The notes beneath the pieces are model-generated. The model saw nothing but the letters and a program-made list of their open reading frames with translations, did no database searches and was not told the DNA's origin. DNA of 29,603 nucleotides from Armatimonadota bacterium (GTDB lineage Bacteria; Armatimonadota; Zipacnadia; Zipacnadales; UBA5352). This document shows positions 3,531-7,924 of the stretch, piece by piece (positions within the stretch are counted from its first letter, which is position 1; every line of letters begins with the position of its first letter). The position numbers and the translations under genes were made by a program. The stretch lies in contig JAYENL010000199.1 of assembly GCA_034722055.1 (NCBI GenBank), forward strand, positions 1 through 29,603, given 5' to 3'.

Positions 3531-4907
3531 GTGCGCTGCATTGTGCTGGCTGCACTCGTGCTATCTGGAGGGACCGCCATGGCGGATGAGCTGGTGACGA
3601 ACCCGGACTTCGCAGCGGTCGAGGAGGGCGTGCCTGAGGGCTGGACCCTGGAGCTGGGCAACCCCCGCACCAAGCCGCGCTACGGCGTGGTGGACCGCGA
3701 TGGCACGCGCTGGATGCAGTTCGCGATGCGCGAGAGCGGCGCATCGATGGGCTACATCTGGCAGCACGTGATGCTCCCCGAGGGCACGGAGGCGGTTCGG
3801 TTCCAGGCTGATGTGCGCTGCGACGGCGCGGCGGAGCCGCTGGAGCACTCCCTGGTGCGCATCTACTGGGACGACGAGCCGCGCGTGCATACGGGCTGGC
3901 CGCCCTGGATCTACCGCCACTTCCCGCAGTACGCGGAGGTTGACGGGGGGCTGGCGCGGCTGGATGCGACCATCCCGGTGCCGGAGCGGGCGAACCGGGT
4001 GCGCTTCGACCTCATGGCCCGCTGGTCGCCGGGCGGCGCGGTGAGCTTCGCCAACCCCAGCATGCAGCCGGTGCCGGCCCCGCAGCGACGCATCGTGCGG
4101 CTGGCGGCGGTGCAGGGACACGCGGCGTCGGGGAGCACGTTGCAGGATGCCATCGATTGGGCAGTCGAGCAGGTGCGGGTGGCGGCCGAGAAGGCGGCCG
4201 ACCTCATCTGCCTGGGCGAGGGCATCAACTACGCGGGGATCGAGGACCTCGAGCCCCTCCAGGCCTGTGAGCCGATCCCCGGCGGGCCGATGGCCCGGGC
4301 GCTGGCGGCGGCCGCCGACGAGAGCGACATCATCGTGTGTGCCGGCCTGTATGAGATCGACGGCGACATCTGCCACAACTCGGCGGCGCTGTGGGGGCGC
4401 GACGGCGAGCTGATCGGCGTCTACCGCAAGGTCCACCTGCCCTCACCGGAGGTGGAGTGGGGCTTCACGCCCGGCAGCAGCTACCCCGTGTTCGAGACGG
4501 ACATCGGGCACGTGGGCATGCAGATCTGCTACGACAACTGCTTCAGTGAGGGCGCGAGGGCGCTGGCGCTGAATGGGGCGGAGATCATCTGCCTGCCGAT
4601 CTGGGGCGCCGGGCGCGCCGACGACACGGCCTGGCCGCATGGGGCACGGATGCTGGCGCTGAACAACGCAGTCGCCTACGTGGCCGCCATCTACAGCCAG
4701 CGTGAGAGCTGCGTCATCGACCAGCACGGGATCGTGCTGGCGAGCGCGGGCGGCGAGGATGGCGTCTACGTAGCGGACGTGGACCTCACCCCCCACGCGG
4801 CGCTGAACAACTGGAGCGAGGACGATCAGATCACGCCGCGCTCCTACCGCGGCGTGTGGCGCCGGGAGCGCATGCCGCAGACCTACGGGCCGGTGCTCGG
4901 GTGGTAG
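3531..4907 (+). CDS. Secreted carbon-nitrogen hydrolase (nitrilase superfamily) with N-terminal carbohydrate-binding-like domain
   Basis: Signal peptide [25 protein letters not shown]...PEGW beta-sandwich-type start; E-K-C triad in LGEG, YRKVH, QICYD; GAGGAGG RBS before the GTG. Confidence 0.85.
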   Translation: MRCIVLAALVLSGGTAMADELVTNPDFAAVEEGVPEGWTLELGNPRTKPRYGVVDRDGTRWMQFAMRESGASMGYIWQHVMLPEGTEAVRFQADVRCDGAAEPLEHSLVRIYWDDEPRVHTGWPPWIYRHFPQYAEVDGGLARLDATIPVPERANRVRFDLMARWSPGGAVSFANPSMQPVPAPQRRIVRLAAVQGHAASGSTLQDAIDWAVEQVRVAAEKAADLICLGEGINYAGIEDLEPLQACEPIPGGPMARALAAAADESDIIVCAGLYEIDGDICHNSAALWGRDGELIGVYRKVHLPSPEVEWGFTPGSSYPVFETDIGHVGMQICYDNCFSEGARALALNGAEIICLPIWGAGRADDTAWPHGARMLALNNAVAYVAAIYSQRESCVIDQHGIVLASAGGEDGVYVADVDLTPHAALNNWSEDDQITPRSYRGVWRRERMPQTYGPVLGW

Positions 4908-4925
4908 CGGGGCCTAGAGGGCGAC

Positions 4926-5495
4926 TCAACCGCCGCTGAGGCATAGCAGGAAACCAAGGGTAGCGAGACCAGTCCCGACAACCGCGCATAGCACGGCGCG
5001 GTCGAACGATGCGGCTTTGCGGTCGATTGCAGCGTCGTTACGCTCGACCAGTTGGGAATACGTCCTGGCCAATCGGCCTGCGACGTGGGATGGTTCGTTC
5101 GTCAACTCGTTGTCGGTGACGACGTCACTCAGGTCTATGCGCTCTATGGTCAGTGGCTTCAATCCCAAGAAGGCAAAGCAGATACAGAGGAGTAAGAAGA
5201 TGAGCGACAGCACGAGAGCTGCTTCGCATGCAAAGCCAAGGACGGCGACCGACGGATTGACACCGCGAAGCAATGCTGAGGCCAGCAGCGCGATAAGCAC
5301 CCCGGCGTACGCGAGTACGAAGCCGAGCTTCTGCTCTGTCTGCCGGAAGCGGTCCTGCTCCTCTTCATAGGCGCACTTGGCAGCGGCAAGCACCAGATCC
5401 GCCGCAGCCGCGTCGTAGTTCCGAGGAGAATCTTCAGTGTTGGCTTGGTCGCACACGGTGCACTCCGAGCTGATGAATGTAGCGTGGGTCGCCAT
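4926..5495 (-). CDS. 3-TM membrane protein with Pycsar-effector (DUF5706)-like layout, function unknown
   Basis: YEEEQDRFRQTEQK followed by two hydrophobic helices, LKP, a soluble helix (TYSQLVERNDAAIDRKAASF) and a C-terminal TM helix. An alternative GTG start at 5456 has a GGAG RBS 6 nt upstream. Confidence 0.7.
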   Translation of the reverse strand: MATHATFISSECTVCDQANTEDSPRNYDAAAADLVLAAAKCAYEEEQDRFRQTEQKLGFVLAYAGVLIALLASALLRGVNPSVAVLGFACEAALVLSLIFLLLCICFAFLGLKPLTIERIDLSDVVTDNELTNEPSHVAGRLARTYSQLVERNDAAIDRKAASFDRAVLCAVVGTGLATLGFLLCLSGG

Positions 5496-5509
5496 GCTGA
5501 CGGGTCACG

Positions 5510-5710
5510 TCAGCTTTCGGTATCACTTCGCTCAACAGATCGCTTGACTGGATCATCCGGGACGTCAATGGTCGCCAAAACAGCTCGCGTGTTGTAGGCT
5601 CGAGGCTTCGTGACCTGTTGATTGGAGTTTTGCGCTTGCTCACTGGACTGCGTCTGTACTTGCTGCTGACTAGTCGGCTCTTTCGGGGCCGGATTCTCCT
5701 GGCGCGTCAT
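5510..5710 (-). CDS. Small Gln-rich disordered peptide (66 aa)
   Basis: Strong RBS GGAGGAGG (5719-5726) before the ATG at 5710. Sequence MTRQENPAPKEPTSQQQVQTQSSEQAQNSNQQVTKPRAYNTRAVLATIDVPDDPVKRSVERSDTES*. Confidence 0.6.
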   Translation of the reverse strand: MTRQENPAPKEPTSQQQVQTQSSEQAQNSNQQVTKPRAYNTRAVLATIDVPDDPVKRSVERSDTES

Positions 5711-5846
5711 CAGTCTGACCTCCTCCGCTCCCGTGTCGCCCCACACCCTTCCTAATGGGTCTCGTTTTGTACGGCTTCGGCTTGCTGGGGGCCGATTGTT
5801 TGCCATCGCCGCCCCGGCGAGATGATCGCGTTTCATTCCGAGACAT
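5670..5846 (-). CDS. Small basic Gly-rich disordered peptide (58 aa; absent from the supplied ORF track)
   Basis: ATG at 5846 with AGGAGA upstream, just downstream of the cassette promoter. Sequence MSRNETRSSRRGGDGKQSAPSKPKPYKTRPIRKGVGRHGSGGGQTDDAPGESGPERAD*. Shares KPxxYxTRx[IV] with the next peptide. Confidence 0.5.
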   Translation of the reverse strand: MSRNETRSSRRGGDGKQSAPSKPKPYKTRPIRKGVGRHGSGGGQTDDAPGESGPERAD

Positions 5847-5902
5847 AGTCTCTCTGGTCTCCTGTCAGCATTTGTGGAGGTTAATTGGCTTCAAGCTTTA
5901 CA

Positions 5903-5932
5903 ATCATACGAGAGAATTCTCCCCGCTGTCAA
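5903..5932 (-). promoter_or_regulatory. Sigma70-like promoter of the low-GC cassette
   Basis: TTGACA (5932-5927), 18-nt spacer, TATGAT (5908-5903). The spacer contains the perfect palindrome GAGAATTCTC (5912-5921). Confidence 0.6.
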
Positions 5933-5947
5933 GTTGGCCCTGTGAAT

Positions 5948-7924
5948 TCAATAGCCAAGCAATTCGATGAGCACAACGCGGAAGGAGTTCGCGGGCACGC
6001 ACAGGACCATGCTCCGGCCGATGGGCGGGCAGGGGGCGCCGGTGAGCCCGTCGGTGACGGTCACCTCGCCGCCCAGCTCCGCCTGCGTGGGCCGCAGGTC
6101 CATGCGCGCTGCCAGCTTTGCATCCGTGGGATTGCCCAGCACCAGCATGACATGATCATCCGGGCGGCGATAGGCGCCGACCAGCAGCTCCTCGGGGCCG
6201 ACCGGCAGCCAGTCGGGCGTGGCCTCGGGCGTGAACCACTCCACCGGCGCCTCGCCGAGGCCGAAGTCCCGGCGGGCCTGCAGCACCGGCACGAGCCGCG
6301 AGTAGTCCATCCACGAGGCCACGGACATCATCACATTGCCGAAGGGCAGCAGCCGGCACAGCATCCAGTCGGTGTACTCCTCGCGGAGGTTCAGCGCTGA
6401 GGGCAGGAAGCACGGCTGGGCGCCCCACTGCCGCCCGGTGCCGGTGATGTCCAGCAGCGTCCGCGTGATCTCCTCCGGATGGCCCTTGGACTTGACGCGG
6501 AAGTGCTCGCCGTCGGAGTAGATGTCCACAAAGGTGAGGTTGAGGCTGTTGGAGGTGCGGGAGTTGTGCTCCCAGACGATGCCCTCCTGGGGCTTGCGGC
6601 CGTGGATGACGGTCCACAGGCGCTTGTGCAGGTCCCGGGTGGCGAAGTAGGTGTAGCGGACGCCATGCTCGCCGCCGCAGCCGTGAGCGGCGTTGTAGCA
6701 GTAGTAGGGACCGGGGTTGTCGATGTAGACGCCGTCGAGGTCGTAGTCCTCCATGGCGCGATCTACCGCCCACACCAGCCAGTCGGCGTAGCTGCTGGCC
6801 GCGCAGGTGCTGGCGTAGACCTCGTTGCCCTCCGTGCTGCCGAAGAGCGGATCGCCGTCGGCGTTGGTCATCAGCCACTGGTCGAGATGGCGCTCGCGGA
6901 CCGGCGAGGGACCGGTGCCCGAGAGCGTGATGTACACGACCACGCGCATGCCGGCGTCGTGGTAGGCCTGGATGGCGTCGCGAAAGGCCTCCGGGTCCTG
7001 TGGCTCGGGATAGCTGAAGTACTTGGTGAGGGAGTTCCACATCAGGGCCACGGTCTGGCCTCGCTCACGGGTCTGCCGGGCCTCTTCCGGCGTGACGAGC
7101 CCGCCCTGGCCGACGTGGCGGCCGTGCCAGCCGGCCGGGAGGGGCTTGCCGGGAGTGGCCTGCAGCCCGATCACCCACGTCCGCTCGCCGAGCTGCGTTG
7201 GCTCGCCGACCAGGTTCGCGCGCAGCACCACCGCCTCGTCGGTGCGCTCGACCTGGACCGCCTGCTCCGGCGGACCGATCCACAGCGCCGGTCGCTCGGT
7301 CACGAAGGTCAGACCCCGCTGGTGATCGCCCAGCCACACCAGCGACTGCCAGCCCTCAGGGCGCCACGACCAGCCCGGCTCGCCGACGCGCTCGTAGACG
7401 TACTGCCCCCAGCGCCTGGAGCTGTGCATGAACATCGCGACGTCAGGCCGGACCGGGACCTCAATGCTCAGGCGGTCAACGGTGGCCTCGCCGGAGGCAT
7501 TGAGGGCGATCTGCATCAGCCCATCGTACTCCAGCCAGCCCTCGGCGGAGATGGCGACGGGGCCGGCCTCTCCCGCGCCCGAGAACTCCACGCGATCATC
7601 CCGCGCCTGGCCCACGGTGAGCGGCAGGCCGGCCACCTGGTGGGTGTCGCCGGCGGCTTCAATGATGACGCGCACCGGCGCCGCCAGCAACTCCTCGCCC
7701 CGGCTGGTGATCTGCGCGGGGAAGGGCGCGGCCAGCGAGTACTCGCGGCCCCAGCAGGAGACCGTGTCCCCCTCCACGGCCAGCGGGTCGAAGGGGTGCG
7801 GCACCTCGGTGGAGATGCCGACGGGCTGCTCCAGCCAGGGCTCGGCGGGGTCGCTGAGGTCGGTGTATGCAGACAGGGGCGCGGCGGCCGTCAGGACGGC
7901 CGCGAGCGTGATGGCGATGCGCAT
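5948..7924 (-). CDS. Secreted DUF6067-like putative glycoside hydrolase
   Basis: Signal peptide; VPHPFDPL...CWGREY N-terminal block; GLQATPGKP; TIM-barrel-like YDLDGVYIDN; AGGAG RBS. Confidence 0.7.
   Translation of the reverse strand: MRIAITLAAVLTAAAPLSAYTDLSDPAEPWLEQPVGISTEVPHPFDPLAVEGDTVSCWGREYSLAAPFPAQITSRGEELLAAPVRVIIEAAGDTHQVAGLPLTVGQARDDRVEFSGAGEAGPVAISAEGWLEYDGLMQIALNASGEATVDRLSIEVPVRPDVAMFMHSSRRWGQYVYERVGEPGWSWRPEGWQSLVWLGDHQRGLTFVTERPALWIGPPEQAVQVERTDEAVVLRANLVGEPTQLGERTWVIGLQATPGKPLPAGWHGRHVGQGGLVTPEEARQTRERGQTVALMWNSLTKYFSYPEPQDPEAFRDAIQAYHDAGMRVVVYITLSGTGPSPVRERHLDQWLMTNADGDPLFGSTEGNEVYASTCAASSYADWLVWAVDRAMEDYDLDGVYIDNPGPYYCYNAAHGCGGEHGVRYTYFATRDLHKRLWTVIHGRKPQEGIVWEHNSRTSNSLNLTFVDIYSDGEHFRVKSKGHPEEITRTLLDITGTGRQWGAQPCFLPSALNLREEYTDWMLCRLLPFGNVMMSVASWMDYSRLVPVLQARRDFGLGEAPVEWFTPEATPDWLPVGPEELLVGAYRRPDDHVMLVLGNPTDAKLAARMDLRPTQAELGGEVTVTDGLTGAPCPPIGRSMVLCVPANSFRVVLIELLGY

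Follow-up and report, generated by a model that had tools for sequence, protein, structure and literature searches.

A horizontally inserted, low-GC cassette in an Armatimonadota genome joins a PycTM-like membrane protein gene to small peptide frames, a pairing conserved at related loci

The window, i.e. the whole 29,603-nucleotide stretch of DNA analysed here, contains an inserted low-GC cassette (4908..5963, unstranded) whose neighbours are a nitrilase-family gene on the left and a glycoside-hydrolase-like gene on the right. The left neighbour (3531..4907, + strand; Pfam PF00795, E 3e-35) encodes a carbon-nitrogen hydrolase that is conserved in relatives, and is a host gene outside the module. 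The right neighbour (5948..7924, - strand) is GH123/GHL6-like and convergent with the left one. Its final codons (LLGY-stop) lie inside the insertion, which supplies a new stop in place of the last codons of the gene (window 5948-5963), and the relatives' versions of the protein terminate in PAQ, PQDTGE or PAAAP. In a DNA search against 30 relatives, with both flanking genes matched, similarity ends at 4907 and restarts at 5964, and none of the 30 has a match inside 4907-5964; the two genes stand 170-470 bp apart in the genomes G007, G005, G016 and G003. The cassette is AT-rich relative to its host only, with a GC content over 4908-5963 of 0.579 versus 0.684 for the genome, so low that 12 of 5649 genome tiles of equal size are as GC-poor, and the GC3 of its three ORFs is 0.58-0.70 versus 0.92 in each flanking gene. 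Collectively, these data support a horizontal insertion, in agreement with the earlier note, which had read the segment as a possibly acquired, AT-rich stretch of about 1 kb between convergent genes; the alternative of a core, syntenic segment of genome-average composition does not fit. No tRNA gene was found in the window, the region 4700-6200 gave no match to Rfam, and at the cassette ends neither a target-site duplication nor a terminal repeat is convincing. No defence or mobility genes lie near the window copy. The same intergenic site carries different DNA in G015, G001, G010 and G004, in G015 with an ORF for a 568-aa membrane protein, and hence looks like a rearrangement hotspot.

The cassette is headed by a sigma70-type promoter-like site, TTGACA-N18-TATGAT (5903..5932, - strand), with 11 of 12 matches and presumably active; one such site was found against 0.2 expected in shuffles. 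It is followed by ORF-A (5670..5846, - strand), a basic hydrophilic peptide of 58 aa with a GRAVY of -1.74 and a Shine-Dalgarno (SD) site of -7.1 kcal/mol, and by ORF-B (5510..5710, - strand), a Gln/Ser/Thr-rich peptide of 66 aa with a GRAVY of -1.39 and the SD site GGAGGAGG (-11.3 kcal/mol), which overlaps ORF-A by 41 nt. The third gene (4926..5495, - strand) encodes a 3-TM protein of 189 aa if started at ATG 5495 or 176 aa if started at GTG 5456, the latter having the better SD site (-6.1 versus -3.3). The promoter and all three frames thus lie where the earlier note had placed them. ORF-B is annotated as a gene in the public protein collection; ORF-A is absent from that collection and has no usable Atlas match, and the dN/dS of ORF-A versus ORF-B is saturated and gives no value. 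A rival 108-aa frame from 5836 was rejected, as it has almost no SD site (-2.9).

The membrane protein has three hydrophobic stretches, and AlphaFold2 (55 sequences) predicts long helices at residues 29-76, 84-111 and 135-188 with a pLDDT of 90. The layout had been likened to that of Pycsar effectors, and the profile comparisons bear this out. The PADLOC PycTM model matches the window protein at E 1.7e-5, and HHalign aligns the profile of the 55-member clade over 163 columns with one built from 16 Pfam PycTM proteins (97%, E 1.2e-10); the window protein is a remote PycTM homolog over its full length. The clade was collected by an exhaustive phmmer search at E<=0.001, which returned the window protein and 54 relatives sharing 22-37% identity with it; in the alignment, PADLOC PycTM matches 28 of the 55 and Pfam PycTM one. 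Pfam scans gave no significant match for the window protein, though a precomputed PF18967 mark is listed, and in the top Atlas clusters near it PF18967 lies on 23-33% of the members. Profiles were needed, since single-protein searches retrieved only the own protein or genome: a word-index search with the window protein found only itself, and a search of 300 genomes of the phylum found nothing beyond the own genome. NCBIfam yielded nothing useful.

In a quick unrooted tree of 61 rows, the 16 Pfam PycTM proteins split from the 45 clade rows, including the window protein, with an SH-aLRT of 98; the clade rows leave out L040, L045, L035 and L036. The FFG loop, present in 9 of the 16 PycTM proteins, is found in 2 of the 55 clade members. 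Because of this split and the mostly missing loop, the clade is, as judged by its sequences, sister to PycTM, and the window protein is not a typical PycTM member. Of the comparisons proposed in the earlier note, the profile search matched PycTM, and Foldseek found no PDB match at E<=0.001; a sequence search of the PDB gave no relative either (best E 0.1), and the best VIA structural match (Z 11.4, rmsd 5.1, 166 aligned) points to generic helical bundles. Longer fused forms (596-2000 aa) were not found, which is weak evidence.

Outside the window, 42 distinct loci were read after the duplicates L047-L051, L059 and L097 had been dropped; L035 and L036 are ordinary Pfam PycTM loci, leaving 40 clade loci. 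By reading, 35 of these 40 have a hydrophilic, Lys/Thr/Ser/Pro-rich ORF of 36-97 aa that either lies immediately 3' of the TM gene or continues its frame, and five have an intact TM gene without a detectable peptide (L031, L037, L055, L071 and L076), mostly on long branches, although L055 matches at E 7e-31. A fixed rule (SD site, 35-100 aa, GRAVY <= -0.75) selects a peptide at 30 of the 42 loci. Among the controls it does so for 3 of 72 further genes from these loci, 46 of 3385 long ORFs in the window's genome and none of 18 Pfam-PycTM loci. The locus counts are not independent, as 14 loci come from one Bacillota clade. In the quick tree the peptide loci are distributed over the branches of the clade. 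The dN/dS is 0.15-0.32 in all eight peptide pairs compared, taken from non-window loci and with dS near saturation, and the peptides of the other loci are under selection. The link of the clade TM protein to small disordered peptides is thus conserved. A linkage to small ORFs upstream had been anticipated; it is the linkage that stands and not its position, the peptides of the homologs lying downstream and the window being the sole locus read with peptides upstream of the TM gene.

Tandem peptides occur at L032 and L053 (three each) and at L056, L064 and L067 (two each). L064, the sole metagenome match, carries two peptides with PYGT-x-TL cores, much like ORF-A and ORF-B. The in-frame 'fusions' L032, L034 and L073 retain a separate SD site and ATG, from which we infer that the peptide is separately translated. 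L073 (459-1671) also has an N-terminal extension of ~130 aa ahead of the TM domain, its in-frame peptide being acidic and 97 aa long. The SD site of the peptide is stronger than the best TM SD site in the window and at 26 of 34 other loci, a comparison that is biased, since an SD had partly guided the choice of peptides and one Bacillota clade contributes 14 loci. At L040 and L074 an interrupted TM gene stands beside an intact peptide, and at L045 the TM gene is apparently frameshifted near its end with the peptide ORF intact; these breaks may be assembly errors.

Gibbs sampling on 29 peptides from outside the window gave a motif with an information of 12.4 versus 9.9-10.6 for shuffled sets and with Thr/Ser as its best-kept position; of 13 peptides kept out of the training, 8 have a score below 2. 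The matrix, trained without the window, nonetheless selects a segment in each of its peptides, KPKPYKTRPIR in ORF-A (residues 22-32, 5783-5751, - strand) and KPRAYNTRAVL in ORF-B (residues 35-45, 5608-5576, - strand), in agreement with the motif sharing claimed for the two. The first score is equalled in 27 of 5000 shuffles and the second in 64 of 5000, and that motif score is also reached by 189 of 10923 (1.7%) SD-led small ORFs of the genome; the common motif exceeds chance yet is loose. It was seen by eye in the P0004 and P0005 tails, which the matrix missed. An interpretation as an FHA-binding or graspetide motif was dropped, because Ser often stands in for the Thr and Lys/Arg often occupies the acidic position. 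The motif is repeated internally in the L052 and L054 peptides. Two or three internal copies are seen in the peptides of L052 (1292-1480), L054 (1240-1446), L068, L069, L070 and L072, the L052 peptide with three FGT units, and such multi-motif peptides resemble multi-core precursors.

Within the window's phylum the profile matched 8 of 300 genomes, and within its class 5 of 78; in Bacillota it matched 7 of 400 genomes, and in one Bacillota order 6 of 300 (centres excluded in each case). The module is patchy and occurs in about 2% of the sampled genomes, in two phyla. It is also present on two plasmids, in two Bacillus phages, in prophages and on IMG/VR contigs. A viral scan for peptides without a TM gene returned the known locus only, a viral scan with the window's subclade returned no match, and tblastn found no match for P0013 in phages or for P0015 and P0035 in plasmids. 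P0055-P0102 form a large, tight subfamily of the clade with 195-aa proteins, one member being named from Veillonella.

A second, distant copy of the module exists in the same genome (G000:C3, L002 = L029, 1498-2170, + strand), with a 159-aa TM protein and a 55-aa acidic peptide downstream. Its GC content is 0.60, and it lies behind an aminotransferase gene, as does its ortholog in G016 (L075); because the same gene precedes both, the second copy and its ortholog look inherited. The two peptides are identical at 27 of 54 residues. Several other copies, too, sit among housekeeping genes (L033, L034 and L073 in addition to L029/L075), and some lie in prophage accessory regions adjoining lysis or integrase genes. 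Eleven peptide loci have an integrase, recombinase or IS gene as a neighbour. At 18 peptide loci with hand-picked neighbours, PADLOC gave a match at 13 as a raw count uncorrected for background, a ParA-like match at L069 being ignored; clear defence systems stand at seven of them (L038, L041, L052, L054, L062, L068 and L072), namely a retron, type I RM twice, IetS, HamB and DRT4 twice.

The lack of a cyclase pointed out in the earlier note was confirmed and extended, as there is none on the window's contig and none beside 34 peptide loci (flanks mostly 1.5-3 kb). A scan of 136 of the 162 listed neighbour ORFs at 41 loci, the 26 dropped being mostly likely shadow frames, yielded a sole cyclase, which adjoins L036, a locus without a peptide, and PADLOC found none among 35 scanned neighbours of peptide loci. 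Among the control Pfam-PycTM loci, 7 of 18 have a cyclase: PycC stands beside six of them, in a scan that took in 21 of 46 neighbours, and the seventh is L085, the same locus as L036. Peptide and cyclase partners co-occur in no locus read. The module is hence not Pycsar, as no cyclase adjoins the peptide loci and the defining neighbour is missing.

Several known systems can be compared with the module. Type II toxin-antitoxin and abortive-infection pairs are mobile, patchily distributed two-gene operons in which a labile, disordered antitoxin has the stronger ribosome site. The module shares the two-gene operon, the small disordered partner, the mobile, patchy occurrence and, in the SD comparison biased by the choice of peptides, the stronger ribosome site, whereas its putative toxin is an integral membrane, PycTM-like protein and its partner, which has no DNA-binding domain, is usually encoded downstream and sometimes in tandem. 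In AgrB/AgrD quorum sensing, a membrane-protein gene is directly followed by a gene for a peptide of ~45 aa, an arrangement similar to that seen here; however, the module has neither an amphipathic leader nor a linked sensor kinase. No AgrB match was obtained among the 55 clade members, no conserved Cys/His is present in the TM-family alignments A1/A2, and no modifying enzyme recurs among the 136 neighbours. The peptide-signalling variant raised in the earlier note is unsupported, as neither a signal peptide nor a processing enzyme accompanies the module. The Pycsar/Pucsar TM systems (PycC or PucC cyclase with PycTM/PucTM; pJV1-spdB3 family 3TM; PF18967) have a 3-TM effector that is homologous along its full length and share the defence-island context at many loci, but in place of their cyclase the module has one to three peptides of 36-97 aa, and its TM proteins form the separate branch in which FFG is rare (2/55 versus 9/16). 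By its description, Streptomyces SpdB3, the namesake of the 3TM family, is toxic in E. coli when induced without a cyclase (PMC4447253); it belongs to a conjugative spd-tra operon, and genes of that kind are not conserved beside the module. Panoptes OptSE, also compared by description, offers the working logic of the proposed peptide plug: according to PMC12657218, its transmembrane effector is silenced by a ligand in constant supply, and toxicity is freed once phage removes that ligand. There, the ligand is a cyclic dinucleotide from the mCpol enzyme and the effector is OptE, whereas here no enzyme is present and the proposed ligand would be an encoded peptide.

Physical contact between the partners was addressed by complex prediction, as the earlier note had suggested. 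For four TM chains with two ORF-A fragments, the score is 0.53 versus 0.02 for the best control; the runs have at least 48% of contacts in common, with a partner pLDDT of at least 45. Of the reference complexes, 116 of 157 solved and 2 of 215 mismatched ones come up to that mark, but in the range of 0.60 or under lie only 18 of the solved ones and both mismatches. This gives weak predicted support for binding of ORF-A to a TM oligomer. In AlphaFold2 on the natural TM-peptide fusion P0039, the tail is undocked, with a pLDDT of ~54 over the motif.

Based on these comparisons, we tentatively propose, with somewhat less than even confidence, a mobile two-part module in which the peptides keep a toxic pore closed and phage-driven loss of the peptides would kill the infected cell. 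The loose motif, the inherited look of the second copy and the window copy's lack of defence or mobility neighbours weigh against it. The proposal draws on the peptide link, the dN/dS values, the tandem sets, the missing cyclase, the rarity of the FFG loop, the defence and mobile-element context, the broken TM genes beside intact peptides, the weak complex prediction, the stronger SD sites of the peptides, the Panoptes precedent, the pore formed by PycTM, described as an abortive-infection effector in parts of PMC11224242 and bioRxiv 10.64898/2026.08.12.744502, and the high toxicity of SpdB3 induction to E. coli reported in PMC4447253 (passages). The TM protein would oligomerise into a pore, as reported for PycTM, and the peptides would be free in the cytoplasm and in excess through their stronger ribosome sites. 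Their central P-x-hydrophobic-x-T/S-x-x-V/I/L motif may then dock on the cytoplasmic part of the oligomer, replacing the cyclic-nucleotide input. The disordered flanks could make the peptides short-lived, or serve as bait for phage proteases or kinases, such that host shut-off or an attack on the peptide would free the pore; having several peptides in tandem would broaden or adjust the trigger. That a PycTM-superfamily pore gated by gene-encoded micro-peptides, and not by a second messenger, represents a new immune class, its interchangeable, tandemly duplicated guard or decoy modules reporting phage proteases, kinases or host shut-off, we place just short of an even chance.

The peptides may instead act as sensors or activators of a pore that is closed alone and opens upon peptide cleavage, phosphorylation or stabilisation in infection, each tandem peptide detecting a different phage enzyme. 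Several different peptides per locus, as in the diverged tandem sets of five loci and the window, fit sensors better than an antitoxin, and the internal repeats of L052 and L054, the preference for Thr/Ser at the best-kept motif position and the ligand activation of PycTM described in passages of PMC11224242 point the same way. Moreover, the five intact TM genes without a peptide (5/40) count against an obligatory antitoxin, which should not allow them. However, strong ribosome sites suggest a constant excess of peptide, broken TM genes stand beside intact peptides and no modifying enzyme is conserved near the module, and we regard activation as rather unlikely. A mobile-element membrane function that does not kill the host (superinfection exclusion, SpdB3-like DNA spreading or a peptide-tuned ion channel), in which the peptide would serve as a subunit with a structural or regulatory role, would agree with the copies beside lysis or integrase genes in prophage accessory regions, with those among housekeeping genes (L029/L075, L033, L034 and L073) and with the work of SpdB3 in plasmid spreading (PMC4447253, in the passages available). 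Immunity fits the patchiness (~2% of genomes sampled) and the frequent defence neighbours at least equally, and such a function is in our judgement unlikely.

Two further explanations give the peptides a smaller part. A cyclase encoded elsewhere could supply the cyclic nucleotide that gates an orphan Pycsar effector in trans, the peptide being accessory only; full-length PycTM homology and five class III cyclase domains, located on other contigs of the genome, are compatible with this, but the separate clade (SH-aLRT 98, quick tree), the mostly missing FFG loop and the loci read, in which peptide and cyclase never come together, make it quite improbable. The small ORFs of the window could also be chance frames in a long leader, with the TM gene acting alone, given that ORF-A is missing from the protein collection, that the upstream position is seen at this locus only, that 1.7% of small ORFs reach the motif score and that the dN/dS values for selection come from peptides of other loci and not from ORF-A or ORF-B. 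Against this stand the peptide link at 35 of 40 loci, the fixed rule (30/42 versus 0/18 Pfam-PycTM loci) and the presence of both an SD site and the motif in each of ORF-A and ORF-B, and we consider chance frames very improbable.

The module is recurrent, two-part and built on a known effector fold, and is apparently undescribed: no account of a PycTM-like protein paired with micro-peptides was found in full-text literature, a body that mostly leaves subscription journals uncovered and may use another name, and the main-text passages of PMC13728456 and of the discovery preprints hold no such pairing. A sister clade that exchanges the cyclase for tiny peptides implies that the same membrane scaffold accepts a different input, and the module may account for some of the 'orphan' PycTM annotations. 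If true, the proposed closure by peptides would be the peptide counterpart of Panoptes, overlooked because the partners fall under annotation cut-offs, and a defined peptide ligand would offer a handle for the structure of PycTM-type proteins, for which the PDB searches found none.

The Pfam-PycTM loci used for comparison show arrangements of their own. At L079 (1167-1826) and L086 (1913-2626), the PycTM gene stands next to a small protein without a PADLOC PycC match; by eye, we take these small proteins to resemble SatD, a palm-domain family, and they are possible hidden cyclase partners. Tandem pairs of PycTM genes occur in L083/L095 and L089/L096, with no cyclase among the L083 neighbours scanned. 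In L085 (1872-3299), L090 (1872-3302) and L092 (1692-3224), PycTM is followed by a long cyclase-domain protein, which in L085 apparently runs on into a P-loop NTPase region.
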